This document shows positions 3,240-60,693 of a DNA stretch of 64,000 nucleotides, piece by piece. The position numbers and the translations under genes are program-made. This stretch comes from Stegostoma tigrinum (lineage: Eukaryota). The notes beneath the pieces were generated by a model. The model ran no database searches and was not told where the DNA came from. It saw nothing but the letters and a program-made list of their open reading frames with translations. The DNA is taken from assembly GCF_030684315.1 (NCBI RefSeq), contig NC_081391.1, forward strand, positions 20,544,629 to 20,608,628, written 5' to 3'. Within the stretch, counting starts at the first letter, position 1. The number at the start of each line of letters is the position of its first letter.

Positions 3240-5250
3240 CTGAACCAGGGTTTTTAGTTTAAGCTTTCAGCAGTTGCTGAGGTTTTTGAGCTGGTCGTGG
3301 GAGCTCTTATTCCTCTCTCTGTTACAGCTACAAGCTGGGGGTTCTCCTCCGGCTTTTAGAATTGCATGTGAGACAATCTATTTCACTGAATCTGTCTTTG
3401 CCAAGGGTGTGTTTATGGGATGCCAAAACAATGGAGTAATTCATTAGTAACAGTTCATATATCTACTATTTTGATAAGCGTTTCATTAGGTAAGCAATAC
3501 CGTTCTTTTCATTTTGTCTATGTTGTGACTGTAGTGTAAAAATAATGTGTACTTTGCTGGAAGCCAATAGTTTGACCAATCAAATCTCACCTGGAACAGA
3601 ATGCCTTCCACTTACCTTTAAAATAAGAAAAAAAAAAATACAGCCTTAATGTATTTGGAGAGGATTTGGCCTGTTCCTCAACAAGAGGTACGAGCCAAAT
3701 AGGACTAATTCTTTTTGAGAACCTGGTTAGCACGGATGAATTGTTGCGAAGGTTCTGTTTTTGTGCTGTATCACTCTGTGACTCTGAGTAGTTTGGCCCT
3801 GGAACAGGTGGTGAAATGTGCTCCTTTGGAATTACCTCTGGGCTTGACAGGCCAGATGAGGGAGCCAGTGATTGACATCAGGATCCACCAATCACCATCC
3901 GCGCACATCTCCCCGAGGACAGACACCACCAACAGACACAGTTGACCTGCCCAAAAAGAAAAAGTGTCTGGAGATTGACAGATGTCCTGGTCAAAATGGA
4001 TCTGAGATACAGTGAATCTCCGGTGGTCACAAAGGGCTTTGTCCAAAGTAATGGACATTGCATAGTCATTCAATGGCCCCCAGAGACTTTGATGAATGAC
4101 TGTGGTGCCTGGCTCTGTGAGAATAGGTGGTGTTCCTGGCTTACTCCCTGGTTGTCTGAATAACCCATGTTCTTCTCAAGCCAACATCCAAATAAATACA
4201 CTGGATTTCCTGCAATGTTTAAGTTCTCACTTAATGGTTTATAGGGCATTTTTAAGAGTACAAAATTATGCAGGGGTTTTTCTGCCATATGTTTTTGCAG
4301 AGAACTCCGGAGTGATTACAAATTTCAGAACACGTGGTCATGGAAAGTTAAAGTAATCAAGACACTCTTGCAAGTCATCTCTATTCTGTAGATGTTTTAT
4401 TTTGGTCAGATGAAGTCTAATACCATTCAAGGCTAGGAATAGCTGTTCCAGAGTCAAGCACTGGCAGATGCTACTGGTTTGTAACAATTGTTCTGAACTG
4501 GTTTCCTTTACTGAGCTTTGTTCTTTAGAATGATTTGGTGGACGTACAGATGTCTTTCAGTCTCCTTCCATTTAGATTATTTCTCTGAAGCCATTCTAAA
4601 AACTTTCAACATCCACCCAGAAATTGATCGGTCATTTGCACCGCAAAATGAACTCAAGCCACATCTTCCAAAAAATAATCTAATATCTGATCATCAAAAC
4701 CCTTGTCATTACCAGACATGGTTATTCTTCCTAAACCTGCAGTGCCCAGTGCTAGTTTTGCAGCCTGCCAGTCTTTGTGTTCTTAATTGCCACAACAAAC
4801 AGTCTAGGCCTGAAGCATCAGCTTTTGTGCTCCTGAGATTTGCATTCATCCAGCTTCACACTTCATCATCTTGGATGCTCCAGCATCTGCAGCTCCCAGT
4901 ACCTGATTTTAATAGCCTTAACTCTGACAATGTCTGTTGAGTGCCAAATGTTAATTATGTTTTGTTGCTAGCCTTTTGCTCTTTAAAAGTAGCAGTTTGT
5001 TTTAAAAAAAGACAAAAACTTGGGATTTCCTTTCCAGTTCATTATGTTAGAGCTTTTTGAATAGCTTGTTTTAAGAGCTATTTTTGTGTCTGCAGATGTT
5101 ATTCTTGGGACGTTGAGACTATAGCCTAACAGTTGATGTTTCCCTCAACTCACATTTATAAAATGAGCACAAAAATCTATGCTTGCTTCAACCACAAACA
5201 TGTTGTTAGAATAAACCATCTGATGAGTGGCTAATACCTTACCCCCCCTC
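3240..5250 (-). mobile_element. Degenerate LTR-like segment plus Gypsy-like internal remnant, paralogous to 18910-21270
   Basis: Colinear similarity with 18910-21270, where an RT-like peptide is readable; boundaries approximate. Confidence 0.5.
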
Positions 5251-6523
5251 CTTTAGACTAAAAGGTAAGATGGAAATTAACCCTTTGGCCACACTCATTT
5301 ATAGTTAGTCCCATTAGCTAGCATATTTACCTAGGTCCAGCCGAACCATTCCAATTCTTTGTCCAGACACCTTTCAAACTGGGAAAAGTGTGCCAGCCTT
5401 CGTCATACACCCCACTTTGAAGCTACCCCTCCAGTCCCTTTTACAGCTTTCCCAATCCCCCACCTTACAACTACTGCCCTAGGGTTGAGACCAGAGGGCA
5501 GAGACCTTGACTGTTTACTCTATCCAAGCCCCTCAAGAAAGCAAGTGTTGTCTCTCCACAACCTGACTCTAGAGTCTAGTACCAGTTCAATCAGCCTCAT
5601 AGCTAAAGGTTCAGTAAAGATCAAGCTATTAGAAATTTTCCTTCAGCAAGGAGATCAGCTTAGTCAGGCTACTACATTCACTGGCCTACAGAGCTGTAAG
5701 GTGGTATTACAACTCCTGTTGTCACTGCACTGATCAAAGAAGGCTTAAAAACACCCAATACCTTCTTCCCCACCCTGCCAAAAGGATTTTCGCAAAGGCC
5801 TTGAGTGCAGGTTCAGTGCTCTGCAGGAGCCTACCATTAGCTGAAAAATTCAGCAAACCAGCAAAGTTAAACCACACCAAGAGGTCAGATTTTCCCCTCA
5901 CCTAATTTGTATTTGCATATCCTTGTTGGTGCAGTCTCCCATTCAAGGGGAAGGGATGCTATGAGAACAAGTCCCATCTGTGACAGATACCAAACAGGTT
6001 GATTAAGAGAATCCATTAAAATCAGAACTCTACAGGTACACAAACTTCAGACTAATTCATTTAAAACAGAGGAGCACCTGATTTGGTTCTTCTGCATCAT
6101 TTGCTGGATCTCAGCTTTCAGCTCATTTGGTCCTTTTGCTGACCAGGATAGGTCCTTGAGCCATTCCTGACCCTTCACTGCTCCTAGTTCTGTGCTAATT
6201 CCTACAAGGGTATTGAGTCTACCCACACAAGATTGAGGGTGGCTGAAGGCAGCAGCTCACCATCTCAAAGGAAACAAGGTCCAGGCAGTGAAACCCAAAG
6301 CCCAGTGGGGAAGTGTTCCCATCAGCAAGAGCAACTAAACAGGATCAAGCTACAGCATAGCTCACAGCAAGCATTAACCTAGAAAAGGGAGGCAAGACAG
6401 TCCAATATTGAGCAGTTTATTTACACTTGGTACAGGACAATGAGCTGCTCCTACTAAAAGAAGTCTCTACAGGTCTCCCATTCAGACACATGACAACAAG
6501 CTCACTGCCTGCAGGCAATTCAG

Positions 6524-10894
<4,371 letters not shown>

Positions 10895-10963
10895 CTTCAC
10901 TATTCCTGCTCACAACCAACTAGACAGCTCCAGAACTAAGCCTCTCAGGCACAAGCTCTTGCA

Positions 10964-11040
10964 TTTATACTCCTGGAACATCCTGTTCTCAATCAGAGAA
11001 TGATGTCACCAATGATCATTGACAACCCTTGATAGCCAAT
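10964..11040 (-). promoter_or_regulatory. Core promoter of ferritin copy 2 (TATA box plus inverted CCAAT boxes)
   Basis: TATAAA at 10964-10969, 70 nt upstream of ATG; CCAAT (+ strand) at 11009-11013 and 11036-11040; conserved in copies 3, 4, 7, 9. Confidence 0.8.
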
Positions 11041-11859: not shown

Positions 11860-11985
11860 AAAACTGAAAGAACCACGGATGCTGTCAGTCAGACATAAAA
11901 ACAGCAATTTCTGTAAAAGCTCAGTAGGTCTGGTAACGTCTGTGAGGAGAAATCAGAGTTAACGTTTTGTGTCAAATAACACTTC
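11860..11985 (-). mobile_element. Penelope-derived short element, family B, partial
   Basis: Matches the arm of the family-B elements at 37350-37560 and 44581-44710 (GATGCTG...AGAAATCAGAGTTAACGTTTT). Confidence 0.6.
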
Positions 11986-12781
11986 CACAGAACCTCCTCC
12001 CTGCTGTGGGAGGCTCACCAAATGCGAGATGTTAGCTCTGATTTCTCAACTGAGGAATATTGACTTGCACCAAATAGTTTGCAGTCAATCTGTGAGTGAA
12101 AAAGTTGGTGAAATGGAAAATGCATTGATGAGATGCCTTGTCCAGAATCCTACAATTTTAAGTGGACCTGTTCGTTGCTAATGACAAACATCAACAAGTC
12201 TAATGTTCTGTTCCTTTTACAAATGTTCACTTTATTCTGAGAGGTATTTGTGAGACAAGATTTAACATTTGAAATTTGGAGAGTCTTGGAACAGGACTTG
12301 ATCCTTTCTGCTTTTATTCATCCAATACATTGTATGTCCCTTGGACAGTGCGGGTGCAGGTAATAGTTCCCACCATTTGGCATCTCTCATGACAGGCATC
12401 TTAAAGTGGTCAATACTAAGCCAAATAAGTGGGTCGAAACAAAACCTCCTTTCACTAATTTTGTGAACAATAGGATTTTGATTGTAAGCAGTCAGCTGCT
12501 TGACCGTTGACACAAGGCCATGTCTAATGTGGTTACAACTACTGGGCTATTTGTAGCCAACCTGGAGAGGGCTTGCCAGAGCAGAGGGAGGGACACACAT
12601 TCGGGTCAAGAGCTGAAATTGAGGAAATCATGAGTTCAGAGGCAGCAATGGCCATCGGGGAGTTGGTGTTGTTCCAGTTGTACTCTATGTTTTTTTTAAG
12701 CCTCAAAGCAATAGTGATGATGGCCTCCCATTACACACTGCCTATCACTATCACAAACTATCCCCATTTGCAGCTGTTTCA

Positions 12782-12998
12782 GAGATAGTACCCACTGCAG
12801 ATGCTGGAGAATCTGAGATAACAAGGCGTGGAGCTGGATGTACACAGCAGGCCAAGCAGCATCAGAGGAGCAGGAACGCTGATGTTTCTGGCCTAGACCG
12901 TTCTTCAGAAGAAAGGTCTAGGCCTGAAACGTCAGCTTTCCTGCTCCTCTGATGCTGCTTGGCCTGCTGTGTACATCCAGCTCTATACCTTGTTATCA
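12782..12998. mobile_element. Palindromic Penelope-derived short element, family A, hammerhead core degenerate
   Basis: ~90-bp inverted arms centred near 12905 (GCTGATGTTTCTGGCCTAGACC...GGTCTAGGCCTGAAACGTCAGC). Confidence 0.8.
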
Positions 12999-13019
12999 CA
13001 TTTACAACTATTCAGCTTC

Positions 13020-13245
13020 CTAGCCAGATTATCAATTCCTTTATCTATCTAACTAATCTTCTATGTCTTTGGGCTCTATCCTTTTTCCTGCCTTTGACTC
13101 CCTATCATCTACATCTAAACTGACGTTTTCCTTGCCAGCTGTTCTGAGGAAGGGTCACTGGACCTGAAATGCTAACTCTGATTTTTGTTTCTTCATGGGT
13201 GCTATCAGACCAGCTCACCTCTTCCAGCAAGTTCTGTTTTTGTTG
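13020..13245 (+). mobile_element. Penelope-derived element, family B, with hammerhead-like core
   Basis: CTGAGGA(13144-13150)-AGGGTC ACTG GACCT-GAAATGCTA followed by the family-B arm. Confidence 0.65.
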
Positions 13246-13589
13246 AGATGGGGAAGTGTTTGGAAAGTGCCCAAGTAGGAAACAATTGTTGAGAGTCTAT
13301 ATCCAGGGACTCTAATTAATTCCTAAGCAAAAGCATGTCAGCCCACCAGGCACATGGAAAACTTAAGGAAACACTTGGAAAAATCTGGTAGAATTGAAGA
13401 GTGATTGTTTTACATTTGCAGGAGGCAGAAATCTAATGATCTCAACCCCACCTTCCCACTTACTTCTGTCAACCTTTCACTTTTGCCTTGGAAGAATCAA
13501 TCTGAAAAATATTCAATATCATTTTGATGGAGACTTCCAATGCCTCAACCTACTCATGCAAAAAAAAAAAATTGGTTTTCAATTGATGA

Positions 13590-14180: not shown

Positions 14181-14369
14181 CACTTTTTTCCCCCCTGGGA
14201 AGGGGGAAAACTAGGTAATCATCCCCAGTGGCAAGGTCAGGGGATGACTTGCCCTGTGTCTGTTTCAGGAAGCAAGTGTGAGCAGCACTTGATTTTCAGT
14301 TTAAAAAGAAGACAGAGCACTGGACTTTCAGCTCCATGAGTAGAGTCAGTTCTCACATGTCTACTGATA

Positions 14370-14760
14370 GAACAGCATTAAGCTGAAGGAACACAGCAGG
14401 CCAGGCTTCCTCAGAGGAGCAGGAAAGTTGCTGTTTTGGGTGAGGACTCTTCAGAAATGCGAGGGGGGGGGGGGTCCAAAATAAATGGAGAGTGGAGGGA
14501 TGGGTCTGGGGGAAAGGAAGGTGGGATGGTGATGGATGGGTGCCAGTAGGGATGGGTCAGTAATGTGCAGATAGGTGGGAGAAGAGATGAACAGGTTGTG
14601 TCAGGAGAGAGCGAGAGCGAACGAACGACTTTGAACTTGAGACCACTGGGCTGTAGACTCCCAGAGGTGCTGCTCTTCCAGTCGGCATTGATGTGACACT
14701 GGAGGCAGCCCAGGAGAGACATGTCACCCAGGAATTGGGGTGGTTAGAATGGTTTTGACT
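14370..14760 (-). mobile_element. Penelope-like (Neptune-type) 3' fragment: GIY-YIG endonuclease C-terminus joined to a family-A terminal repeat
   Basis: Minus-strand peptide pieces DMSLLG, EEQHL, GSLQPSGL match the PLE endonuclease end, followed by a pyrimidine-rich tract and a degenerate CTGAAGA...AAAAC core. Confidence 0.7.
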
Positions 14761-15075
14761 TCAAGGTGTTGTTTGTTGTGACCAGAACACAAAAGTGCTC
14801 AAAAAGAACAAGTCTAAGCCTCCACTTGGTCTCACCTGATAAAAGAGAGACACACACAGGATCACATTTAGGGATCAGTGAGGAATGCCAACAATATATT
14901 AAGGCTTTCACAGAATCAGTTCATGCCACTAGCAATCTTTGCTCTGGATCAGTTGTCAGTTATTGAGTTATTCAACACCAAGTCCATTTCAGATATTTAT
15001 TTCTATATCCAGTCAGAAATCAGAACAGGTTTACATTTCAACCTCAAGTAGAGCACTGAAGTATTCCGCAGCTCA

Positions 15076-17997
<2,922 letters not shown>

Positions 17998-21270: not shown

Positions 21271-21426
21271 ACAAGTCAGTTTGGAAGCTGCCCCTTTGGT
21301 CTAATTCACCTAGTTCCATTTGCACTGTCCCTCTAAATCCTTTCCTTTAAACGGCACCTGCATGGGTCTGTGAAGAGCTGTACCAGTCTCCTCCACCTTT
21401 TCTAGCAGTTCATTCCATACACACTA

Positions 21427-21638
21427 TGTGTGGAGCTGGATGAACACAGCAGGTCAAGCAGCATCTCAGGAGCACAAAAGCTGATGTTTCGGGCCTAGAC
21501 CCTTCATCAGAGCTCTGATGAAGGGTCTAGACCCAAAACGTCAGCTTTTGTGCTCCTGAGATGCTGCGTGGCCTGCTGTGTTCATCCAGCTCCACAATTT
21601 ATCTTGGATTCTCCAGCATCTGCAGTTCCCATTATCAC
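21427..21638. mobile_element. Palindromic family-A element with back-to-back hammerhead cores
   Basis: ...GGGCCTAGACCCTTCATCAG AGCT CTGATGAAGGGTCTAGACCCAAAACGTCAGC...; ~85-bp inverted arms centred at 21512/21513. Confidence 0.88.
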
Positions 21639-22652
21639 TGTGTGGAAGTTGCCCCTCAGGCCCCTTTTAAAAAAAAATCTCTGCACTCCTACCTGAAACC
21701 TACACCCTCTTGTTTCCTTAATCCTAGGGAAAGGAACAGTGACCTTGACTATTCCTCTCACTTTGTGAATCATGAGAGGCATGGATAAAGGCTCCCCAAG
21801 CCTTTAACTCACCAGAGAGGCTTGCTCCAGCTTCCTTGTAAATGTTCAGGAAGATTTACATTTCAATATATCTTTCCTTTTGGAGTTGGGGGGGGGGGGG
21901 GGGGTGGAAAGAGAGAAGGAGCGAGAGCACGAGAGAGCCCAGTGTTGACTGTAATAGTCGCGCAGTGGAATTGCAACTGTCCTACACCAAGGGCACCAAC
22001 TCCTATACTCCATGCACTGACCCAAGGCAGCAAGCACCCCAAATGCCATCTTTCTCACCTTGTCCACAAACTCCAAGGAACATTGGCAAATGAAGACTCA
22101 GGGTGCAGGTGAAAGGGTCTGGCAGTGCCTCCTGCTAACTGATAATGTTGACAAACCAGTTAAGGTTTGAAATCTCACCCTGATTTACAATTGGGTCTCA
22201 CCTAATAGGCACAATTATTTGAATGGCCCTTGGTGGTGCAGTGGTAGCAACCCTACCCCTTGAGTGGGAGAATGGGGAGTTCAACTCCCGAAATGTGAAT
22301 GACAAGCTTGACTCCCAGAAAAACCTTGAGAGGTTATTCAAACTCAAGTGCCTGGGGTTTGGTTAGACTTCCACTACTGGAATCTCAGCTTTCCCCAGTG
22401 TGCCTCAGCTCTGTTGGCTTGTAACCCCTCGCATAGTTTATTCTACTGAGCAAAATGATAGGTCCGCAAGCCATTCCTTCCTTCAATGAAGCGTGTCAAC
22501 CTACAAAAGATGGTGGAGTAGCTCAAGGAAACTGGCCACCCCTCTCGAAGAGGACAAGGTGCAGGCACTTGTCCGGGCAGTGAAACCTACAGCTCGGACT
22601 AGTAGTGAAAGAGTTCCTATCAGGATGAACAGAACCAAACAGGATCAAGCTA

Positions 22653-22859
22653 TGAGCTAGTAGGAACAGCAGATGCTGGAGAATCTGCGATAACAAGGTG
22701 TGGAGCTGGATGAACACATCAGGCCAAGCAGCAGAGGAGCAGGAAGACTGACATTTCAGGCAGAGGCCCTCAGAGTCAAGCCCAAAACTTCAGCCTTCCT
22801 GCTCCTTTAATGCTGTTTGGCCCACTGTGTTCATCCAACTCCACATCTTGTTATCTCAA
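22653..22859. mobile_element. Palindromic family-A element with 10-bp target-site duplication
   Basis: GATCAAGCTA at 22643-22652 and 22860-22869; paralogous flanks at ~6343 and ~30564 show the empty site. Confidence 0.85.
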
Positions 22860-23041
22860 GATCAAGCTACAGCACAGCTCACAGCAAGAATTAACCCAGA
22901 AAGGGAGGCAAGACATGGTCCATTATAGCACAGTTTATTTACACTTTGTACAGAGCAATGAGCTGCTCCTACAAAAAAGGAGCAGTCTCTACAGGTCTCC
23001 CATTCAGACACATGACAACAAGCTCACACCCTGCAGTCAGT

Positions 23042-25680: not shown

Positions 25681-26228
25681 CTTCACTATCACCAAGACAA
25701 CTCTAAAACCAAGCCTCACTACCACAACCTCTTGTACTCTTCCTCCAAGGCCCAAACAGGGCGTAGCATTATTAATAATGATTGACAATCCCTGACATCC
25801 AATCAGGAATCTCCTATCAATCCAGTTACCAATTAATAGGGAAAGGGGGCTGTTGGGATGGGCTAAAACCCAGAGCCAATCAGAAATTTGGAATACAGGG
25901 AGGTTTGGGAAATAAGGCTTGCTGATGCAATTGGTTTTGGAGTGACAAATCCTCAACATACCCCACACGAGCTGTTATTGAAAAGCGCCAGTATCCCTAT
26001 CTCTGGATCAACAAACTCTGAGTTCAGGTGCCAGTGTCCCTCATAAAATAGCTACAATGGCGCAGGAATGGAGTGATGAAAAGCCATTACCTTTGGTGAA
26101 ACACTTTTCCATCATCTGACAAAATTTGTTTCTTTTTGTCGCTGTGACTGTTTCTCCGATATCCCAAGTGTTTGCATCTGGTTTCATTCTCGAAGGGGTT
26201 CAGTCCTGGATTAGGTGATGATAACGCA

Positions 26229-26313
26229 ATGTGGAGCTGGATGAACACAGCAGGCCAGGCAGCATTTAAGGAGAAGGAAAGCTGACGTTTCAGGTCAGGA
26301 CCCTTCTTCAGAA
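26229..26313 (-). mobile_element. Family-A short element with intact hammerhead core
   Basis: Minus strand CTGAAGA-AGGGTC CT GACCT-GAAAC GTC at 26284-26311. Confidence 0.8.
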
Positions 26314-31089: not shown

Positions 31090-33110
31090 TAGTTTAATCT
31101 AATCCCATTTACCACAATTTGGCCCATATCCCTCAACCGCTTCCCCCCCGCTCCCCGCCCCATTCATATACCCATCCAGATGCCTTTTAAGTGTTGTCAT
31201 TATATAAGCCATCGCTTCCCAACACTCATTCCAGACACAACCTTGTGTGGAGAGGTATCCCTTAGATCTCTTAAATCTTTGCCTCACCTTAAACTAATGC
31301 CCTTTAGTTTTGGACTCCGCCCTGGGGAATGTTCTGACTATTTCTGTAAACATGCCCCTCAAGGTTCCCGCATCCCCACCTCAGCTCCTGACACTCCAGG
31401 GCAATGCTCCAGCCTACTCAGCCTCTCCCTGCTGTGGCACCACCCTTAAAACCTTTTGAACCTTTTCAAGTTTCAGAATATCCTTATTAGCTGGGGATGG
31501 GAATCACGTGTTGTATTCCAAAGTGGAATAACCACTTGTGTGCAGCCACACCATGACTTCACCTACTATACTCAAGGAGCTGACCAATAAAGCCAAGCGT
31601 TCCAAGTCCTGATCTGTATTTCCAAAATCCAGCACCTCACATTTATCTAAATTAAATGCCATCTCCCACGCCAGCCCATTGAGCTATCTGATGGAGATCC
31701 AATTGCTCTAGGTGCCCTTCTTCACTGTCCAATACACCTCCATTTTGAGGATATCTGCAGACTTACTAACCATACCTCACATCTGAATGATACAGGACGA
31801 AAAGCAGCAGGCCCAGCATCAAAGATAACGGGAACTGCAGATGCTGGAGAATCCAAGATAACAAAGTGTGGAGCTGGATGAACACAGCAGGCCAAGCAGC
31901 ATCTCTGCAGTACAAAAGCTGATGTTTCGGGCCTGGACCCTTCATCAGAGCATCAATCCTTGTGACACTATTGGTCACAGGTTTCCAGTCTGAAAAGAAC
32001 CGCCCACCACTACCTTTTGTCTACCTGAGCCAGTTCAGTATTCAAATGACTAATTCTCCCTGTATTCCATATGATGCAGCCTTGCTTACCAGTCTAGCAA
32101 GAGGGATTTTGTTCAATGACTTACTGAAGTCCATTTGGATCACACCCACTTCTCTGCCTTCAATCCTCTTCATTATTTCTTCAAATGAAGTTAGAGACAA
32201 TTTCCCATACAAAGCTGTGTTGACTATTCCTAATCAGTCCTTGCCTTGGCAAAGGACTTAAAATCCTTTCCCTCAAACTTGCCCAACACCAAATGTCAGA
32301 CTCATTGGTCTATAGTTCTCTAACCTTTCCTTACCACATTAACCTCCTATCTTTAGATAGGAAATTTGATAGCAAATGATACAACTATCTCAGCAAGGGG
32401 CCCAGCAATCACTCCAGATTTCTACGGTACAGCTACTTAGGTCCGAAGGATTTGTCCACCTATGTGTTTTAAGATGTCCAGCACCACCTCTGATGCTGAG
32501 CTCTTTCAAGATATCACTATTTTCCATGTTCTACATCTTCCACAAGCTTCTCCACATTAAATATTGTGGAAAAACACTTGTTTAGTATCTCCACAGCTCT
32601 TGGGACTCCACACATAGGGACACTTTTCTCCTCAAGCTTTTTGTAGAGTCCTTTGGATTTGCTTTAACCCTATTTGCCAAAGCTTTCATGTCCCCTTTTT
32701 GCTGTCCTGATTTCCTTCTTTAGAACATAAAGGCAGTAAGAGTATACTTAGGCTGATGCCCATGCCTGATGGATGTTTCCTTTCATTAAACCTCAATTTT
32801 TCTTGTCATCGAGCATTCCTACACCTATCAGCCTTGCCTTCCAACCTAACAGGAACAGTGTCTCTGGGCAATTCTCATTTTTGAGAGCTTCCCATTTTTC
32901 TAGCCATCCTTTACCTGCAAAGGTCTGTCCCAGTAAGCTTTTGGAAGTTCTTGCCTAGTACCTTCTAAATTGGAAGGTGGCCAATTTTGACTTTTTTTAA
33001 AGGTAACTGGTTTCTGCTTTTCCATCACTATTTTGCAAAAAACAAATTTATGGTTCCTGGCTCTAATAATATGCTCCCCCACTGACACTGCAGCCACCTA
33101 CCCTGGCTTA
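31090..33110 (-). mobile_element. Long degenerate CR1 LINE in intron 3 of copy 5
   Basis: Reverse-complement similarity to CR1 ORF2 (ORF 31099..31287 GCVWNE...LKRHLDGYMN); explains the 2.5-kb intron. Confidence 0.7.
31823..31948 (-). mobile_element. Family-A short element (126 bp) with 8-bp TSD, nested in CR1
   Basis: AGCATCAA at 31815-31822 and 31949-31956; minus strand starts exactly at CTGATGAAGGGTCCAGGCCCGAAACATC. Confidence 0.85.
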
Positions 33111-33119
33111 TTGTATCAG

Positions 33120-33246
33120 TGATAATGGGAACTGCAGATGCTGGAGAATCCAAGATAATAAAATGTGAGGCTGGATGAACACAGCAGGCCCAGCAGCATC
33201 TCAGGAGAACAAAAGCTGACGTTTCGGGCCTAGACCCTTCATCAGA
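33120..33246 (-). mobile_element. Family-A short element with intact hammerhead core
   Basis: Minus strand CTGATGA-AGGGTC TA GGCCC-GAAAC GTC at 33218-33245. Confidence 0.85.
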
Positions 33247-40944: not shown

Positions 40945-41347
40945 AGTATCCCCATAGTGTGGAAACAGGCTCTCCAGCCCAACAAATCCACACTGAACCT
41001 TGGAGCAGTCTTGCTATGACCCATCTCACCTATACCTCCCTGACCACTACGGGGCAACTTAGCATAGCCAATCCACCTAACCTACATGTCTTTGGGTTGT
41101 AGGAGGAAACCTACACACAAGGACAATCGTGAAAACTCCTCAGTTGCCTGAGGGTGGAATTGAGCCTGGATCCCTAGTGTTGAGACAGCAGTGCTCTCTG
41201 ATGAAGGGTCTAGGCCCGAAACGTCAGCTTTTGTGCTCCTGAGATGCTGCTTGGCCTGCGTGTTCATCCAGCCTGACATTTTATCATCTTGGAATTCTCC
41301 AGCATCTGCAGTTCCCATTATCTCTAGTGCTATCCACTGTGCTGCCC
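40945..41347 (-). mobile_element. HE1-like SINE interrupted by a family-A element
   Basis: SINE body 40945-41195 resumes at 41326-41347. Confidence 0.75.
41196..41325 (+). ncRNA. Family-A short element (130 bp) carrying a minimal type I hammerhead ribozyme core
   Basis: CTGATGA(41198-41204) AGGGTC TA GGCCC GAAAC GTC(41225); TSD AGTGCT at 41190-41195 and 41326-41331. Confidence 0.75.
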
Positions 41348-42335
41348 ATTTTCAGATTACTTGCTGTTTTGTTTCCATTTCTCTCTCTCTCCTTGCAACC
41401 TTTGCTACTTTCTTGTGGGTTGGACACTCTCTTATATTAGAATGAAATGTAACTATTCCTGAAAGCATTTGTCCCTGCAACTTTTGATCACTGACAAACC
41501 TTGTGAATTCCTTTAGTGGAAGGTGATCACTTTCAGTAACTTAGGAGCTACATCAGTGTATGTCAAACAAAGCACAGACTCTGAAATAATGGTCTTAAAC
41601 CTAGTAGCATCTGTGCAGAGAGTTCACTAGAACTTTGTTTAGGTCCTCCAGCTTTCCATTGTATATTGAGGCTCAGGTGTAACTAGAATTCTATTCCTTT
41701 CTATCTACTTGCAGTTATCTATCTTTGACCGGGATGATGTTGCCCTGTGTCACTTTGAGTTCTTGAAGGAGCAGTCCCATGAGGAAAAGAACATGCTGAG
41801 AAACTGATGGCATTCCAGAATAAACGTGGAGGCCGAGTCCTCCTGCAGGACATCAAGGTTAAATTTGCTTCAGATATATTCAAAAAATTCTGAATTGGGT
41901 TTAATGTAGCAATTGTATTATGATTGCTTGTTTGTGTAAATATGCAGTTTCTTTTATTCTTTCAATTGAGAGAAATACCTGCCCCTTTGCACCCCCCTCC
42001 AGAAGCCAGAGCAGGATGAGTGGGGCAATGCAGAGAGCTCTGCAGATGGAGAAGGATGTGAACCAGACTCTGCTGGATCTGCACAAACTGGCCTCTGACC
42101 ACACTGACCCTCATGTGAGTACTTGGATGAGGGACTACTATCCTTGATCTCTCAACTCTTGCTTGTGATTCTTTTTGGTTTTGGGTGAAGGACTTGGGAT
42201 CAATGCACACTTTGGCACAAAAACCTTCAATAACTACCAGTTGATGATCCATTCTTCAAAGGGACCTCCTTTCCAGAACTTGAAACTTTGATTCTTTTGT
42301 TGGTCACTACTTAGTCATCCATCTCTGCTTTCTAG

Positions 42336-42488
<153 letters not shown>

Positions 42489-49953: not shown

Positions 49954-51696
49954 GACTGTGCATTTGCTGCCAATTGTTTGGGAGGGGGGAACCAAATGGG
50001 TCACGAATGCCCTTTTTAGTGAAATAAGCTACTATCCTTACCAGGTCTAAACTACATCTGACTCCAGACATGCAGCAATGTGGTTGATTCTGAACTGCCC
50101 TCTGGGCAATTGAGAATGGGCAATGAATGCTGACTAGCCAGTGATGCCCTCATCCTGTGAGTGAATTTTAAACAACAACTCTACCTTGTGACCTTTGTTC
50201 ACTGTAAACATTAAAGATAATTCAGTGTTTCTCTCTCTCTGTTGAGACTGTGGTGCTTGTTCTTTCTCCTGTCCTCCCTCCAGAAGCCAGAGCAGGATGA
50301 GTGGGGCAGTGGTCTGGAGGCAATGCAGAGAGCTCTGCAGATGGAGAAGGATGTGAAACAGAGTCTGCTGGGTCTGCACAAACTCTCCTCTGAACTCATG
50401 GGCCCTCATGTGAGTTTCTCCTCTTTAAGAAGTTTTCTTTCCCTTTCATGCTTGCAATCCAGGAAAGCACTATCAGGAATTACAGGAGAAATTCTTTCCA
50501 AAGCTTGGAAGCAAATGATCTTCCTGTGCACTCGAGCAGAAAAGATTTTTCTCAACAGCCATCTGCACACTGTTAAAACTATAACAGTATCACCTGAGCG
50601 TACCTCTCCATCAGTGTGGCTGGGTGATGGTCACATCTGAAATGGAAGATTACTTTCAAATAGCTTTTTGATTCTGTAGAATAATTTTGACTTTGTTTCT
50701 CCTGCTGTGTGACTTCCTGGAGAGGCACTACTTGGATGAGCAAGTGAAGACGATCAAGAAACTGGGAGATCACATCTCCAACCTGGAGACACTGGAACCC
50801 CCTGCGAAGGGCATGAGAGTACTTGTTTGACAAGCTCACCCTGAATTGAGTGGGCTCAATAAACTGTTTGTACAAGGTGACTTCATTCGAGTGAAAGAAT
50901 TTGGTTTGTGCCCTGAACAGAACTAAAATAGTATTCATGATCAAACTGAGTACTTCATGTAATTTCACATCATTTGGCTCTTGAATGTTCTGGCTGTTTT
51001 GCATCTGGTTCTGTTTAGTCCTTAAGCTTTTGGTCTCATCCTAAAGCAATAACAACCCATGTAGCTAGCTGATATTTGAAGTAATTCTTGTTGTGGAATT
51101 TCCATGGCTGCTTAAGCTTTTTGATTTGGAAGCAATGCTCGTTCCCCTGATGGTTTTGTCTTGTGCTGAGTGGACTGATTTTTAAGAACAACCTCTGGTC
51201 CACAAATCAATCAACAGTCTACATGTTAAACACCTAACTGGTGCTCTGTCCCTGGCAATGATTGAATCTCTAAAATTTAAAAGAACAATGGACCCTGAAA
51301 ATACGGACAAAATCAAATTCCTTGGATTGGCTCAACAGGTACAGCAGTGCTTTGGAGAAATCCGTTCTCAATGGTCCCCAGCTGAAATATGGACTGATTT
51401 ATCTCTACAAATGCTGCTTGACCTGGTTTTATTTCTAGCAAAGGGTCTTAGTTTAATCATTAACATCTACTGACTGCAGTCGGTTCGAGTTCCCCCAACA
51501 GGAATAAAAATGATCACAATTGCACAATACACTGTTGTGACTGCTTTTGGGTGATTGTTAGCTCATTGTTTCCAAGGTAGGGAATTCAGTTTCTCTGCTG
51601 GCAGACTTTCTTGCTGCACTATCAAGCCTGCTGTTTTCCTTTTCAGCCCATTTTTTAAAAGAATAAAGAGGCAAAAAGTAGGTGAGTGACTGTTCT

Positions 51697-51815
51697 GAGT
51701 TAACAAGGTGTAGAGCTGGATGAATACAGCAGGCAGAGACACATCTTCATTTTCTGAAGAAGGGTCTAGGCCCGAAATGCCAGCCTTCCAGCTGTGTTCA
51801 TCCTTTTGTTATCAA
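51697..51815. mobile_element. Internally deleted palindromic family-A element with 10-bp TSD
   Basis: TGACTGTTCT on both sides; core CTGAAGAAGGGTCTAGGCCCGAAATGCC. Confidence 0.75.
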
Positions 51816-53069
51816 TGACTGTTCTACCAGCTTCAGAATGCTCCACTTAGCACTTCCAACAGCTTGAATTGGATGAAAGGTGGGGCAGCTAAGAGCTGAT
51901 GTGTGACACTCACATTTCCCAAGTAAGACTTCTTGCTCAAGGGAGAATTAGAAATTAAATAAGCGATGAGTTACATATGAATAAAATTTTAAAGCCGACT
52001 GCACTTTTAAAGTTGCAGAGCTGGGTCAAACGTTCTATTCAAATTTCCCTGTGTCCAAACTGTCTGAAATAGTGGAGTTGTTTGAAGAGATGTGACCAAA
52101 CTGACTGATATAGCTCATAATCCAGACTTGGTTCTGAGCCATAGGACAATAGGACTTTGTTTTATTAAGCACCACACCAGAAGGGCATTTCCAGTTGCAT
52201 ATCAGCAGTTCCATGCAGAATTCTTTTTTAATAGTGTGTGGTAGGGGAGAACAGACAATATTATCTTTGAGGACAGATGCCTCCTTGATGGGGATTGTCA
52301 GGAGATCAGTGAGGGAATAGAAATAATGACCTTATCCATGCATTTGGGGTGTGGAGGAGAAAGAGTTGCCAGACAAAATCAGGAACTACTCCAGAATCTT
52401 GACAGCCTCCAGCTCACAGCAGAGCTTGATTGGCAAAACAGCCACGAACATTATCTCTTCCACCACTGAGTATAAGAGGATGCTACTGTGGTAGGAAGTT
52501 GGGGCAGTTAATTGGAGGCAACACGCTGGATTGTGGAGGGGACAATATTCATGATGGTGGGGCAACTCAACATATGAGTGGGGTGGGGGGGTGGAGACTG
52601 TAGTCATTGGAAGACATAGGTTACTGTGAGAAGGAAATCATCAATATTCACAACCGTCCTGCCTTTGATGGGTGGGGGAGTGCGTATTGTTACTGAGCAA
52701 GATGGTTGGCGTGACTGAGCTATAAGGCAGGGGCTCAGTGGTCAATATTGATAGATAAAGCTCATTCAAAGAGGTGTGTGGGCATCTTTAGAAGCTCAGT
52801 GCTGATGGCACAACAGGGTTGCAAGGATCATGGAGGTTCAGCTTGGAGGTACCCGTGACTATGTCTCGTGTCACGGGCAACCTATATTACTTGCCATACT
52901 TGTGTGACTCATAGATATATGCTGCAAATGAAAAATGGCTGAGACAACACCCAAAGTAGGTGGAGTAACTTTTGTTTTTTGTCTGAGCATGAGAGCCCAA
53001 ATTGTAATTGTTAATTCAAGGCTCCTCAGGGTCTATTGCTTTAATCTGGTGCTAGCAGTGTACAGATAG

Positions 53070-54120
53070 AGGTTGTCGTCATCGTCATCAGCAATTACTC
53101 ACTAACGAGCATGATTGTCCATCTAGGAATTTCCATGTCGTTGGTGATGTGTTCTTTGGGTCCTTGCACGGTTGATGAGCCTGACCCTAGAGCCACATCT
53201 CCAACCACATTTGGTGGGTGTTTCTGGGAGATGGAAATGGTCCTTGACCTTGAGATCACTGGCATTCCTTTTTCATACTTCCTCTTGCTGACAGGTGTTC
53301 TCAAAGAATTATTTCCCTTCATATTGGAGGTTCCTGCGGGTCAGTTTCTTCTGAGTGAGGGTTTCCCAGGTATTCCTTCAGGTGCATGACTTCGGCAAGA
53401 CATTCTCTAACGTGGAAATGCTGTTGCACATCAGCACACAGGTGTTCCTGGACAGAGCATAGATCCGTTTTTAGTGGCAATAAAACCCAGATGACTGGGG
53501 ATCTCCGTATTCTGCGGCCTTCATCCTTCTTCACGGCTGTCGATGCGTCACAAACATCTTTTGTCTGAATCGCTACTGCGGGCTTGTTTTGGACTGCTTT
53601 TGTCTGGTTCCTCCCCTCTGACCTTACTTTCATGGGTGACCCTTCCAGGAGTATGTAAACACATGCAGTGTCACGAGCAGTCTTAACCATGTCACTGGTC
53701 AATGAAGATTGAAGACAGTCATCTCTGTATAACAGAGATAATCACAGGTGACCTTAAAAAGTGGCATCTGTGGCATCATAAAGATATTCCAAGATCTGAT
53801 ATGTTGCATAAGGGCAGACAACTGAGCACCCATCATCTTGAACTGTAAACATTCACCAGCATGCTTTTCTATGCTATATTGTCTTTTTGGGGTAACGTAG
53901 GGTGTGAGGACAAGGTATCAGCAATCACACTGCACCTATAACCTCCTACTTTATTCGCATAATATGACTTGTACTGTATGCATTGAAAAAGTCCCACTAT
54001 CATAGGTCCTTGTGGAGGTATCGCCTGATTTTAGCATTCCTTTTTGAAGTCCTTCGTGTCCTGATGTAAGGATGCCAATGCTGAGCGTCATTTGAGAGTG
54101 ACCGAAATGCTGTTAGCCCA
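53070..54120 (-). mobile_element. RTE-clade LINE 3' fragment, degenerate
   Basis: Minus strand encodes WETL...FFE...CGWRCGSRVRLINRARTQRTH, resembling the RTE C-terminal C2H2-like motif, then a (GATGAC)-type tail; 5' boundary uncertain. Confidence 0.6.
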
Positions 54121-54360
54121 CTTTGCTAAGGACCCGTTCTGTTTCTTATATTCTCCACATAAGTTAGTTGGAATTGTGGCCGATGTGTCCAGCCATAACA
54201 GGGGTTATTGTTGTGTTTGTTGTGGGGCAACAACGATGCGGAGAACCTGAGAACAACAGATTGGTGAACGAGCCCAGGATCAACAGCTACTTCGAGTGAT
54301 CTGCTGAGCAGCTCCACATGAAGCCACCATAGTAGAACGTCCCTGAGCATTTACAAGAAC

Positions 54361-55440
54361 GTCCCTCTGTGTAGAAGTTTTAGGGATGGCTGTAATTGAT
54401 ATTTTAAAGAGGATTTATGGATTTGACAGGGTAAATAGAGAGAACCTGTTTTTTCTCAAAGGTCATCTAGGAGTTTTCCATCTTTGAAGCTGTTTCCTCC
54501 AGATTAATATGTTTTGAACAGGGTAGCACGGTGGCTCAGGGGTTAGCACTCACCTCACAGCGCCAAAGGCCCCGGGTTCGATTCCAGCCTCGGGTGACTG
54601 TCTGTGTGGAGTGTGCACATTCTACCCATGTCTGCGTGGGTTTCCTCCCACATTCCAAAGATGTGCAGGTTAGGTGGATTGGCCATGCTAAATTGCCCAT
54701 AGTGCCCAGGGATGTTCAGGTTAAGTGAGTTAGACGTGGGAAATGGGTCTGGGTGGGATGCTCTTCAAAGGGGCGGTGTAGACGTGTTGGGCCGAATAGC
54801 CTGTTTCCACACTGTGGAGATTCTATGATTCTATGATGCTCACGGACTGCACTGTCTACCATCGGCCAAATGCTGCAGAAATTCACCAAAGCTCCTTTTG
54901 CCAAGACCTTCCAAAACCCCAATTAATTTGCAAAGAACAAGAGCAGCAGCTACATGGGAACACCACCCCCTGTGAGTTCTACTTCAAGACACTCACCATC
55001 CTGACTTGGAAACATAGCCCCATTCCTCCAGTGTTGATGGGTCACAATCCTGGAATTCCCTCCCTAACAGCACTGGGGATCTGCCGACACCCCAGAGGCA
55101 ACAGCAAGTCAAGAAGGCAAGCCACCACATCCTCTAATGTTAGGCCTGATCTCAGAGCAGTTCAAACATCTCTGGATGGAAGTTCATTTGTGAAATTGTC
55201 AAGTTCCAGTCCAGCCATATCTGGAGTGCACAGTTCTGGCAGATTAGACCCAAATATGGTTATGCACAGAATTTCTGGACTGAAACTAGATACAGAACTG
55301 GTTAAATGATGACAACAGTTTGTCCAAGTCCCTCTGTGTAGAAGGTTAAGGGATGGCTGTAATTAATATTTTTAAGAGGATCTATGGATTCGACAGGGTA
55401 GACAGAGAGAACCTGTTCCTTCTCAAAGGTCATCTAGGAC
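54361..55440 (+). repeat. Direct duplication of a ~110-bp CR1-derived segment (54361-54472 and 55329-55439)
   Basis: GTCCCTCTGTGTAGAAG...TCTCAAAGGTCATCTAGGA occurs twice. Confidence 0.75.
54521..54836 (+). mobile_element. HE1-like tRNA-derived SINE, full length
   Basis: GCACGGTGGCTCAGGGGTTAGCAC (A box), GGTTCGATTCC (B box), tail ATTCTATGATTCTATGA. Confidence 0.92.
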
Positions 55441-56124
55441 TGAGTGTGGAAAAGGATTATAATCTTCACATTAGAATTGAATCATTCAGGATAATGTTTT
55501 TCTCTCTGAAAAATAAAGATCCAATTAACTTAAAATTGGGAACCACTAACTAAAACAAAGCCTGCTGGATAGGCTTTGCAGGTCTGGCAGGATTTGTGGG
55601 AGAAAGCAGGTTGTTTTTTGGCCCAATGACCTTTTCCTGAGTGTCTTTTATTAGATACTAACTGATGCAACACATTCTTCCACTTGAAATGTGAATGATC
55701 TAGAAACAAATCAGTCATGGTTTGGTGTAATCAGGTAAGTAATATGGGGAGCTGGCTGAGATATCTTGGCACCCTGGTCAAGATGCACAGTCCCTCCATT
55801 CAGTAGGACCATGACCTGACTGGCTTCCAGCCCTAAGTGTTTCTAACCATGAGTGCAGGGTTGTCTAATGGCTGTATCCACCTGTGAATGTCATAGTCCA
55901 CCATATCTCACTCATTGCAATGTCTCTTCCCTGACACCAGTCAGAGGCTGCAGCTGTGTTTATTGCCTCTATTTTGAGGGGTGAACATGTCTGGTTTTGG
56001 ACTATCATCAATGTGACAACTTTTCTCTCTTGGTCCATCTATCAACATCCTGTTGTTGAAAGCAAAAACAAAGTGATTGGTTAAAGTGAGCCATTGAGAC
56101 TGACATTTGCTTCCAACTTTGCAG

Positions 56125-57320
56125 TTTTCTTACTTTGACCGGGATGATGTTGCCCTGCGTCACTTTGCTGTGTTCTTCAAGGAGCAGTACCATGAGGAGC
56201 GGGAACATGCTGAGAAACTAATGGCATTCCAGAACAAACGCGGTGGCCAAGTCCTCCTGCAGGACATCAAGGTTGGATTCTTGATCTTCAAGTTGGCAGG
56301 TCTGTGAGCTGACTAGTACACCTCTATCTGTTGAGCTTTAGGACTGAGTAAATGCTCTGAATGGTAGGTTACTCACTGAAACAAAATATGGCTTCATTTT
56401 GAAGGAAATGCCTTTTTTCTTGTGTTCCAAGAGCAGTAGGCAACTGAGATGATCCAGAATACTGGATGGTGAGGAAGTGTAAACAATCAGGCCACAGAAG
56501 GTAAGACTAGATTTCTAGGAGAAGAAAGCAGCAGCTTTCAGCCTTGCCTTATCTAGATGTTTCTAATGTTGTGATCAGAACAATTCCAAGGCATAGAATA
56601 GCAAAGCAAGGAATTACTTCCATTGGTACCTATTCTCCCACTGTAGGATATGCTTAAACTTGCTCTTTCAGAACCATGTGAAATCTAGAGGTTGTTTGAT
56701 GCCAAAGTAAAGTTGGTCTGAAGTACCTCCCTACAATGATGACAGACAACTAACTGATCAGATGTAGACTAATGATCCAACTGCCTACTGAGCTGTGCTT
56801 TGTTCCTGCTTCCCTCCCTCCAGAAGCCAGAGCAGGATGAGTGGGGCAATGGTCTGGAGGCAATGCAGAGAGCTCTGCAGATGGAGAAGGATGTGAACCA
56901 GAGTCTGCTGGATCTGCACAAACTCGCCTCTGGCCACACAGACCCTCATGTGAGTTTCTTTCACTTCTAAATGGAGGAAAAAGTTCTAGTGTACTCACTA
57001 GAACATCCAGTTACCTTCTCACAGCCCCCTGCAGGCTGTTAAAACAGCCTTTCAAAGGCATTACCCTGAGTGCACCTCCACATGGTGGTGATGGTCACAT
57101 CTGTTGTGGGAGATCACTTTCAGACATCTCTTTTTGATCCTTTTGGATACTTTTTTCCTTCCAGCTGTGTGACTTCGTGGAGAGGCACTACCTGGATGAG
57201 CAAGTGAAGATGATCAAGAAGCTGGGAGATCACATCACCAACCTGAAGAGACTGGGAGCCCCTGACAATGGCATGGGAGAGTACCTGTTTGACACTCTCT
57301 CACTAGGGGAGAGCGACTGA
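56125..57320 (+). CDS. Ferritin copy 8: intact exons 2-4, exon 1 not found (partial gene or pseudogene)
   Basis: Exons 56125-56271, 56824-56949, 57165-57320, GT-AG, open frame, ends [15 protein letters not shown] 57421-57426. No exon-1 homolog seen between 50.9 and 56.1 kb. Confidence 0.78.
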
Positions 57321-57469
57321 ACTGACTGCAGGGAATGGGTACTTATTGTGTTATTCAGTCAAATGGCTCATGTCTCTCGTGGTGACCTTGGCTTTATTGT
57401 GAAAAGGGCTTTTTGAACTGAATAAAATGCTCACTACCTGTAGTCTGTATGCTTTCTCTTGGAATAGTA

Positions 57470-57720
57470 CCATCAATGGGATGGAGAAACTGAGTTGGTG
57501 GCTGGAAGGGGAGGAGGTGGTGATGGGTGGAAACTGTGAAATTGGGGAAGTCCATGTTCTGAATCCTCCATGCAGTAGCGTGCCCAGACAGAAGATAAGG
57601 TTGTTCTTCAAATGTGTAATGGAGGAGGCCAAGTTTGGGTTGGAGTTTAAATGGGCAGTGACGGGGAGGTTAGGCTGGTTGTTACAGACCAGGTGAAGAT
57701 CCTCAATGAAACAAAAGGCC
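57470..57720 (-). mobile_element. Penelope-like (Neptune-type) GIY-YIG endonuclease C-terminal fragment
   Basis: ORF 57351..57722(-) contains LPVTAHLN and LIFCLGTL..GG motifs. Confidence 0.65.
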
Positions 57721-60474
57721 AATCTTTGCTCTGTATTACCAGCTTAAACTGGTGTTTTTCACCTCAATTAGGAATTATCACTTCAGTGGAGGTTTGTGTA
57801 CTATTAATTTAATACCATTTCATTTTTATGAAAATCAAGGTTAGCCTATTAACCAGCGATCCAGCACTTAAAACATAGTCTAACCTAACTTTAATAGACA
57901 TGAGTGCCTCACCCAAATTTGTCAATTATCCCAAAGGACTACCCCTAAATGCAAGAAACTGGTTTCTCTCCCACCTTGCAGCTGAGGAAAGCACTGACTT
58001 CCAACATGTGATGCTGGACACTTTGGAGATGAATAGTTTTCTTCTTTCAAGTTCAAGAAAAACAATTCTGTTCAAAGAAACTGTCTGATTTCTTGACTAA
58101 TTCCTGTGTCACAATTTTAGCTGTGCATTTCCTTTCCTTCCTACCCACCCCTGATCTGTTACAGCCAGTTCCTTGGCAAATGTCCGTTAGCCATCAATAT
58201 TCCAGGCAGGATATCGTTAGCTGGTTACAACCCTAGATGAGAAGTGATTTAATGGGAGCCAGTTTCAGTTCACCTGTCAGTGGAACAGCATTATCCATTG
58301 ATACCTTTCCTTGAACAAATACTTTTGAAAAGTGTGAAAGGAGACATTAATCAGGCTTTCAACTTGAAAGGAAAGTGTAAGAGTTGTCAAGCAGCATATT
58401 AAGTAAATAACACATTCAGATGGTAAACAGAAAGTGACTATGAAAATGACAGCATAGAATTAGGCCCCTACACTTTAGCTCTGCCACTCAATCATGTTTC
58501 TCAATCCCCATTTTCCTGCCTGTTCCCTGTGATCCTTGGTCCCTTTCTAACTGGATACCTGTTGATCTGTCTTAAAACTCAATTGGGCCTCTACAGCCCT
58601 ATTTGGCAACAATTTCCACCAACTAACGACCCTCTGGCTGGAGAAATTCCACAAGGTTTTATAAATCAGTCTGAAGTTCTGTGACAAATGTGTGAAATGG
58701 CCACTGTGTTGGAATTTATCGGTAATGTTGACATTTGTGAAGCAGTTAATATGAAGAACCTGAGCTTTGTGCAGTTGTTGAAAAGAAAACCACACAAACA
58801 TCTTTCAATGTGACTTTAGCTTCCAACTCAGTGTGATTGCTTCCTTCTTTACCTGCAGCATAGGGGTGTCTAATGGCTGCTCTGAGGTTGTGACACGCGC
58901 ACACCTTTTCTTTCAATCTTGGAAGCTTAAAACACAGTTTGGAACATAATCCACAGGTGATGGTTTTCTATTGAGGGGGATATTCAGCCTTCCACTGTTA
59001 CTGCAGCCAAAACGGTTCACTATCTAACTTGTTTCAAATTGCATCTCTTCTTTTGAGGAGCAGCTTTTCAGGTGTGACATTCCATGTTTCCTCTCAGGGC
59101 TTTGCTAGTTGCTCATTTCAAACCCATAGTCATCTGTTGGCCAAATGTCCTCTTTTCAAAGGCTCAAATTCTCATTAAAAGCTCAATCTATCTGTAAGTA
59201 GTCATGGGTTTTGATCCATTGAAATGAAAGAAGCAATTTGGATATTTTTCCTTTACAGACATGTTCCAAAAGCTCTCAATCTCTCCAAACCAGCAGCTCC
59301 TCCATTAACATGCCAGTTTGAATTTGGGTGCAGTGTCAAACATATTGTATTTTGGTACCTGGGTACCAACTGCTTGCATTTTCCATGAGCAGTTTCTCTC
59401 CTTGATGTTAGTCACAGGGTTGTATAGAAGTCTGTGGTGGATGATGAGTTACACAAAAGCTCACCATATCTTAGTGCTTTATTACGTTGTAGTAACTCGT
59501 ATTCATTGGCAGTCCCTCAGGGTTGAGAATACCTTGCTTTCCTCCAGGGCTGGGGGTTCTGTGGTGGCTGAATGGACCAATCCTGGAGGTGCAGACTCTA
59601 CCCCATGTGTCAGTTGGTGGTCGTGGGGGTGGGGTCGGTGTTTGAGGAGGCAGGTGGGTGAGACCCTCTGGATCCTGTGCTCGGACCATAATCAGTGATA
59701 CTCAAAGATGTTGCTGTCTTTGTGGATGTTTCTTCTCTAGTTTGTGCATTTCAAGGGCAAGTAATTCCGTTGCATAAGTGGGAATTTCACATTTATTTAG
59801 AGAGGCTTTCAGAGTGTTGCTCTGCCCTCCTCATGATCACTTACCCATGCAGACCAATTTTTAAAAGTTCTTTCACAGGATGTGGGCATCTTCGGCAGGC
59901 CAGCATTTATTGCCCCTCTCTAATTGCTCAGGGGGCCATTGAAAGTCCACCACATTGCTATGGGTCTGTAGTCACATGTAGGGCAGAGCAGGTAAGGCAG
60001 GGGGCTTCCTTCCCTAAAGCACATCAATTACCTAATGGATTTCTAAGGACAATCGCTAGTGGTTTCACAGTCGTCAGTAGATTTGTAATTCCAGGTTTTT
60101 TTGTATTGCATTCAAATCCCACCATCTGCTGTGTTGGGATTTGAACCAACTTGCTCCAATCACCAAATAGCCAATGCTTCATCCAAAGGCTGTGCTATAC
60201 ATCAGAAAGAGTGTAATTCCATGTTCACTCATAGATTAACCCTTTCATGTACGTTATCTTTTGCAACAATATCAAGTAGGAATCTTCCATTTCCAAATCC
60301 TTCTGGATTTCCATTGGCCTCCATCACACCACTAACGATTTAAAGTTTAAATGGTGACAGTTTAAATTTGCCCATTTTAACTCGAGAGGATTCTGAAGGG
60401 ATGGGGGAATCCAGATTGAACAGCGGTTACAAAAAGTGTTTGGGGATATAACAAAAAGAAACAAGTGCAGGTAC

Positions 60475-60693
60475 TGAGATAGTAGGAGCTGCAGATGCTG
60501 GAGAATCTGAGATAACAGGGTATAGACCTGGAGGAACACAGCTGTCCAAGCAGCATCAGAGGAGCAGGAAGGCTGAGGCTTCGGGCCTAGACCCTCCTTT
60601 CTGAAGAAGGGTCTAGGCCCAAAACGTCAGCCTTCCTGCTCCTCTGATACTGCTTGGGCTGCTGTGTTCATCTAGGTCTACATCTTGTTATCT
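60475..60693. mobile_element. Palindromic family-A element with 13-bp TSD
   Basis: CAAGTGCAGGTAC at 60462-60474 and 60694-60706; core CTGAAGAAGGGTCTAGGCCCAAAACGTC at 60601. Confidence 0.88.

Follow-up and report, generated by a model that had tools for sequence, protein, structure and literature searches.

Minimal hammerhead ribozymes have been described in the terminal repeats (pLTRs) of Neptune, Poseidon and Xena elements of fishes (PMC4209133), and the role of the hammerhead in Penelope-like elements has been called unclear (PMC8557442). In the Anolis Poseidon element PAc, the ribozyme is dispensable in vitro, RNA ends at the cut are absent, the hammerhead is protein-assisted and the main template is uncut RNA (PMC11167929; statements on published systems, here and below, refer to the accessible parts of each source). 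The window analysed here, a stretch of 64,000 nt from Stegostoma tigrinum (contig NC_081391.1, positions 20,544,629 to 20,608,628), carries a dispersed short repeat with a hammerhead of this kind, which we call family A. We find that the short unit is the pLTR of a young autonomous Penelope-like element, that the start points of its copies likely record where the element RNA begins and that copy ends record, less certainly, the ribozyme cut site in the animal. Both the hammerhead motif and the element class are already known, and the added value is the map of copy ends: the literature listings held no cap-G or cut-site footprint, in a search that left subscription papers, Repbase and Dfam outside. 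With an intact, recently active copy and abundant insertions at hand, predictions can be made at base level, namely an RNA start at -4, a cut after +27 and reverse transcriptase (RT) starts near +93 and +129. Throughout, the numbering takes the first C of the hammerhead core (C3) as 0, and the predicted cut falls between +27 and +28.

A preliminary description of the window had named 11 positions for this repeat, and it is present at all of them. Because five of the 11 loci are head-to-head inverted pairs, the window holds 16 arms, many in minus orientation. Only three of the 16 arms, at 41198(+), 33245(-) and 26311(-), satisfy a strict descriptor of the minimal hammerhead, which requires the core boxes, a stem II of 4 bp, a palindromic stem III and an NUH triplet. 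These are exactly the three whose cores had been called intact, and 200 dinucleotide shuffles contained no match. The motif had been assigned to the minimal type I hammerheads of Penelope kind with a weak stem I, and we agree on both counts, since the core boxes, NUH triplet and palindromic stem III are all there and stem I has just 2 bp in young family A. The proposed stem II variants are present as well, but the 5-bp stem with a 2-nt loop that they implied is not feasible by folding; stem II has 4 bp, closes a 4-nt loop and follows one unpaired A. Like the hammerheads of PMC4209133, family A has the core boxes, the unpaired base before stem II, the G10.1-C11.1 pair, a loopless palindromic stem III, a location in the pLTR, dispersed single copies and close opposite-strand pairs; unlike them, it has a stem II of 4 bp and, in young copies, a stem I of 2 bp, where helix I has 4-5 bp in the schistosome families. 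No shark entry was found in the searched text or two supplement files of that paper, whose other supplements may list shark families. An Rfam search of the window returned no hammerhead family, even at E<=10, and its 22 sub-threshold rows are mostly microRNA models falling on the inverted pairs.

The idea that the unit starts at the core as a rule has to be abandoned, as 24 of the 30 best genomic matches to the copy at 41196 (a set that includes the window copy itself) run on upstream into the body of a retroelement. These 24 pass through a pyrimidine-rich untranslated region (UTR), and the longer ones reach an open reading frame (ORF) with YIDD and GIY-YIG motifs. At the locus L068, an inverted 5'-truncated copy is followed by a pLTR, a 1,100-aa ORF (RT and GIY-YIG) and a second pLTR; a distance of 3,693 bp separates the two direct hammerheads, and the identity between the repeats is 99.3%. 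The same layout of direct pLTRs and inverted copy recurs at L069 with a broken reading frame, and four further loci fetched alongside these two are truncated or interrupted. Pfam recognizes RVT_1 at residues 585-726 (E=3e-5) and GIY-YIG at residues 960-999 (E=0.004) of the L068 ORF, both below the curated cut-off, and the ORF contains DKG, YIDD, GIY-YIG and H..H motifs as well as a C-x4-C-x2-C linker at residue 923. Of 7,986 candidates scored in a protein search, 1,253 are homologs that share the domains of this ORF, the best named one being a bamboo shark protein with 79% identity, in keeping with the shark setting that had been suggested; a PDB sequence search with the element ORF gave 0 matches. 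Around residues 240-310, in its N-terminal part, the L068 ORF also contains an A/D/G/T/P-rich peptide repeat whose number differs among copies. Related elements, mostly at 85-95% identity, occur in four contig sets guessed to be RNA and were not used as evidence.

Membership of the Penelope-like class is practically certain. A C-x2-5-C-x2-C linker between RT and endonuclease is a feature of Neptune and Nematis elements (PMC8557442), so the C-x4-C-x2-C linker of L068 marks one of these two. The described Neptune clade shares with our element an RT followed by a C-terminal GIY-YIG domain, a zinc-finger-like linker, the partial tandem arrangement with pLTRs, the inverted 5' copy and a tail of 30-40 bp at one end (PMC8557442); an insertion bias toward microsatellites has also been noted for Neptune elements (PMC8557442). 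The clade is provisionally Neptune-type, an assignment by linker motif and vertebrate host rather than by an RT tree. The PAc ORF, in contrast, starts inside the hammerhead (PMC11167929), whereas the ATG of the present element lies 166 nt after C3.

To describe copy ends, a census was taken from 138 stretches of 10 kb at regular coordinates, amounting to 1.38 Mb of the 3.2-Gb genome, in which arms were detected via the segment downstream of the hammerhead and kept if they had at least 80% identity over at least 35 nt. It contains 245 arms in 192 insertions, or one insertion per 7.2 kb, which bears out the very high copy number proposed earlier and scales to about 4.5e5 family A insertions genome-wide; the core with stems II and III is intact in 49 of the 245 arms. 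The 3' ends are bimodal, near +93 or +129, giving copies of about 95 and 130 bp. Among the inverted pairs, 51 of 53 combine a long and a short arm, and none combines two long arms, the pattern of a Penelope tail carried at one end only. Where the 5' end is readable (237 arms), 84 arms extend at least 13 nt upstream into the element body and 91 (38%) start at -8 to +8, the 5' edge of the core; the others start at +9 to +27 (18), at +28 to +38 (25) or later (19). Each half of the sample, taken separately, shows the peak at -8 to +8 (p<1e-26 in either half). Of 61 young short or paired insertions, 44 are flanked by candidate target duplications of 6-18 bp, those of 6-7 bp possibly by chance.

These ends are readily explained if RNA polymerase II started at -4, which we consider very probable: the transcript would then open with the hammerhead, in its first 32 nt, and a copied cap would account for the extra G found before many copies. 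The copies of about 95 and 130 bp would be dead-end cDNAs, for which RT began at one of two internal sites and ran off the capped 5' end. PAc is similar in having two internal RT start sites that bound its tail; in Anolis, the tail lies between them (PMC11167929). The reading as a whole, that is, a pLTR of a young Penelope-like element giving rise to what are likely dead-end cDNA stubs, is one that we regard as probable. In addition, it places the ribozyme at the start of a capped RNA, whereas PMC4209133 proposes precursor release and circularization.

Two kinds of evidence point to a capped start. First, a TATA-like word lies 29-31 nt before -4 in 42 of 73 young matches (long copies), and older subfamilies and the sister family B have a TATA-like word at -26 to -34 and an initiator-like A at -4. 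The stubs are left without this word and probably do not act as source elements. Among described relatives, the pLTR of a rotifer element has a noted TATA and initiator (PMC3846280), and Drosophila Penelope uses an internal TATA-less promoter (PMC2377424). Second, a capped start at -4 implies that RT run-off should leave an extra G, for which L1 and SVA provide a precedent (PMC3287187). Genome-wide, the base before -4 is G in 4,969 cases and A in 795, a count that was run because young copies starting exactly at -4 carried G within the pooled listing of solo copies. For a filtered test, the first 100 entries were taken from the list of 3,913 matches lacking A at -6, and 42 of them were set aside as palindrome-type or as matching the element's own base (probable point mutants); G precedes 45 of the remaining 58 (p=1.5e-15, hand count). 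By comparison, G precedes 28 of 100 listed junctions at +28, where no cap is expected (hand count), and 12 of 55 internal truncations. From 20 fetched loci with G, 22 junctions could be examined, and in 16 of them the G is templated by neither the parent nor the inverted partner.

An alternative is that the pile-up at -4 is a hotspot of RT drop-off or template switching at the pyrimidine tract, with the G supplied by G-rich partners or by a target preference. Inverted partners are indeed G-rich upstream and account for three of the 22 G junctions, young copies begin at C rather than at a purine, and the pooled solo copies are without G excess. This explanation seems unlikely to us, given that the spacing from the TATA-like word is fixed across families whose upstream sequences differ, that G occurs at element-to-element junctions where neither piece templates it, and that no G excess accompanies the +28 junctions or the internal truncations. 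Nevertheless, several observations weigh against a capped start. The three junctions templated by a partner are joined by three that are variant long copies, making 6 of 22; the solo copies pooled over all subfamilies have G in 8 of 25 (p=0.41); the excess in the older subfamily is weak (24 among the first 100 matches listed, and 11 of 23 once filtered, p=0.03); and in two window copies the G is possibly target-derived. Moreover, start and cut positions are both read from genomic junctions.

The inferred start in the young subfamily is a C followed by pyrimidines, which resembles the TCT or 5'-terminal oligopyrimidine (5'-TOP) start class. For family A, a 3' splice site at -4 can be dismissed, since there is no AG at that point. 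At L068 (oriented 4125-4134), L213, L218 and L229, short fillers stand at the junctions between element pieces; one of them resembles the cleavage-site region, and several short direct tandems begin again at -4 after an extra G, which suggests serial template jumps.

Whether the ribozyme also cuts is a separate matter. We lean slightly toward a hammerhead that would cut after +27 in a minority of transcripts, probably acting as a dimer or assisted by a protein. Cutting would remove a capped piece of 32 nt, and the uncapped remainder would also be copied, giving a peak of junctions at +28. When genome-wide matches with five mismatching flank letters were counted at each position, there were 71 at +22, 78 at +26, 654 at +28, 200 at +30 and 467 at +36, so that the maximum coincides with the predicted cut. 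PAc differs in that its RNA-seq, as presented in the accessible text, has no ends at the cut (PMC11167929), whereas the genomic junctions peak there in the shark.

The peak could instead reflect RT stalling or microhomology. A real possibility, if short of a probable one, is that the element is the same Penelope-like element and its family A hammerhead a non-cutting relic, with +28 produced by stalling plus microhomology. The minimum-energy fold of the family A monomer is predicted to be an inactive hairpin ending at +29 (-11.4 vs -3.6 kcal/mol), a structure that could stall RT near +29 without any cut, and stem I of young copies is reduced to 2 bp. Furthermore, the junction plateau reaches +36, where the count is also high, and the Anolis hammerhead mutants had no effect on in vitro insertion, with no reads ending at the cut in the accessible text (PMC11167929). 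The counts themselves call for caution, as the flank filters vary by position (a common hand filter gives about 92 vs 12 for +28 vs +26) and about one-third of the listed +28 junctions resemble microhomology at the 4-nt palindrome or internal deletions. The +28 to +38 cluster of the census was found in 17 of 34 (p=3e-4) in the first sample and, without significance, in 8 of 28 (p=0.26) in the second. All of these points count against cutting. On the other side, +28 itself has the highest count, threefold that at +30, whereas stalling at the base of the hairpin would be expected to shift junctions to +30 or beyond, and the majority core is unchanged in every subfamily except at N7 and position 17.

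Conservation of the ribozyme has to be judged separately for source elements and for inserted copies. N7 and position 17 are the only sites at which the majority core varies among families A, B and D. In stem II, three of the four pairs change on both sides across 14 copies from these families, which were chosen with stem II pairing and without control of relatedness. Stem I measures 4 bp in family B, 3 bp in family D and 2 bp in family A, its two inner pairs covary, and the predicted fold of family B has stem I closed, with no inactive hairpin. The retained core and the two-sided stem changes may be taken to support selection on the source elements, in what is a biased test of a pre-filtered set, as the matches behind the subfamily majority sequences had been filtered for a near-intact core. 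Inserted young copies have no excess conservation of the core (2.1% vs 2.2% at the median downstream site) and show CpG losses at G12 and in stem III. Such neutral decay is expected because inserted copies are dead, and it says nothing on function. Another idea, that palindromic junctions form a stem I of 6 bp, was rejected because the pairs in question collapse into a single long hairpin (-156 to -173 kcal/mol).

A more speculative proposal, which we put forward tentatively, is that the hammerhead serves as a self-decapping switch, whose cutting divides the RNAs between two pools, one capped and translatable and the other uncapped. If this is true, thousands of fossils of both ends are preserved in the genome, namely cap-G stubs at -4 and capless ones at +28, and these provide base-resolution evidence of in vivo cutting by a Penelope minimal hammerhead. 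It would also be a function unlike the proposed release of monomers from tandem precursors.

The preliminary description had favoured a separate non-autonomous, retrozyme-like element, a view that finds no support in that form, as the unit is the pLTR of an autonomous element and the common haplotypes are shared by short and long copies (23 : 22, 5 : 11 and 7 : 4 across the long and short classes). One may still argue that the short unit is a self-propagating non-autonomous element, similar to a retrozyme or a short interspersed element (SINE), with its own source copies mobilized in trans. Most arms are short, with 153 of 237 starting no earlier than -8, two minor haplotypes consist mainly of short copies (6 short : 1 long; 13 : 3), and the many promoter-bearing 3' pLTRs could supply short transcripts in trans. 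This possibility is nonetheless a rather remote one: besides the shared common haplotypes, no two of 39 short solo copies have a 5' flank in common, the stubs are without the TATA-like word, and circles joined from cleavage site to cleavage site predict a permutation at +28, whereas most copies start at the 5' edge of the core.

Comparison with non-LTR (long terminal repeat) retrozymes gives a mixed picture. As in those (PMC7229834; bioRxiv 10.64898/2026.07.22.740005), the units derive from pLTRs and have type I hammerheads; in contrast, the copies in the window are stubs of 95-135 bp, single or inverted, whose hammerhead is minimal rather than canonical, and tandem arrays with one hammerhead per unit are absent from all 11 loci. 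Elsewhere in the genome, at L037:3259-6257 (G000:C6, about 67,986,958-67,989,956), nine units of 349 bp stand together, six on one strand and three on the other. They are about 99% identical, and each consists of the pLTR plus the first 102 nt toward and into the ORF start, with an intact hammerhead. Such an array, with nine hammerheads in the form of a non-LTR retrozyme, is in favour of the non-autonomous explanation; for one chondrichthyan, a mean of 363 bp is reported (bioRxiv 10.64898/2026.07.22.740005). It looks like a newly formed retrozyme-type array. A genome DNA search with the 102-bp L037 spacer was a false negative that did not return L037 itself, and it gives no count of arrays.

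Within the window, the copies illustrate a range of forms. The stub at 41194..41325 (+) has a tail and an intact core at 41198-41225, with the predicted cut after 41225; it begins at -4 after a G, which here may be target-derived. Another young stub with a tail, at 33113..33246 (-), has its intact core at 33218-33245, and the third intact core, at 26284-26311, belongs to a tailless stub at 26217..26312 (-) with a 9-bp target duplication. The stub with a tail at 31815..31950 (-) has an 8-bp target duplication and a mutated CpG in stem III. In the young inverted pair at 21413..21640, both arms start from -2; the short arm (-) has a mutated stem III CpG, and the long arm with its tail (+) is mutated at G12. 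At 4802..4907 (+) lies a pLTR stub with a tail that starts from +10, so the 5' half of the core is absent, and the 3' half is mutated. The inverted pair at 12775..13000, from an older subfamily, consists of a long arm with a tail (-, 12775-12910) and a short arm (+, 12904-13000), both with broken hammerheads. An old copy with a broken core at 14366..14520 (-) extends about 51 nt beyond the core on its upstream side, into the element's pyrimidine-rich 3' UTR; nearby, on the same strand, is a weak GIY-YIG remnant at 14588-14902. The pair at 22654..22874 starts from +7, has lost its cores and has a 7-bp candidate target duplication. A degraded inverted pair at 51694..51857 has a plus arm with a mutated cleavage triplet and an internal deletion, and the older-subfamily pair at 60476..60695, with long (-) and short (+) arms, has broken cores and a 13-bp target duplication.

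The window also spans, at 2084-63651, a cluster in which about nine gene copies lie in tandem, five minus-strand copies followed by four plus-strand ones. We take them to be ferritin-like on the basis of translated exons and known motifs rather than a family search. Some of these copies look broken, with a stop in exon 1 at about 40255 and a frameshift in exon 2 near 41780, and exon 1 was not found for three copies of the cluster. The placement of the repeat in ferritin introns proposed earlier is correct for three of the 11 loci, which lie between mapped ferritin-like exons, and not for the other eight. The stubs at 31815..31950 and 33113..33246 are both in sense orientation in the same intron 3 of one gene, and the stub at 41194..41325 is in sense orientation in intron 1 of the gene with the stop codon in exon 1; the tailless stub at 26217..26312 lies about 0.5 kb upstream of a ferritin-like exon 1. 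All three intronic copies being sense, two of them with intact cores, could be read as regulation of ferritin pre-mRNA by self-cleavage. We consider this very improbable. Three sense copies out of three have a chance probability of 1/8, intact cores in 3 of the 16 window arms are ordinary beside 49 of 245 random arms, inserted copies decay neutrally, and one host gene has the exon 1 stop while the other has no detected exon 1. The earlier suggestion that these copies could cut the pre-mRNA finds no support, given the neutral decay, the inactive monomer fold and the exon 1 stop in one of the two host genes, and nothing points to an effect on host genes.

Other hammerhead families accompany family A. 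Family D (and, more rarely, E) is unrelated to it and occurs at L080, L094, L112, L146, L200, L203 and other loci; it has a longer stem II, a different upstream layout and an ATG inside the core, and is possibly Poseidon-type. Family D was not found in the window. Stubs of the sister family B, in contrast, are present there at 13144(+), 17639/17687, 37434/37507, 44581(+), about 55596(-) and about 11990(-). They have a GUU triplet and the 4-bp stem I, and long copies of family B elsewhere have a canonical TATA and initiator.

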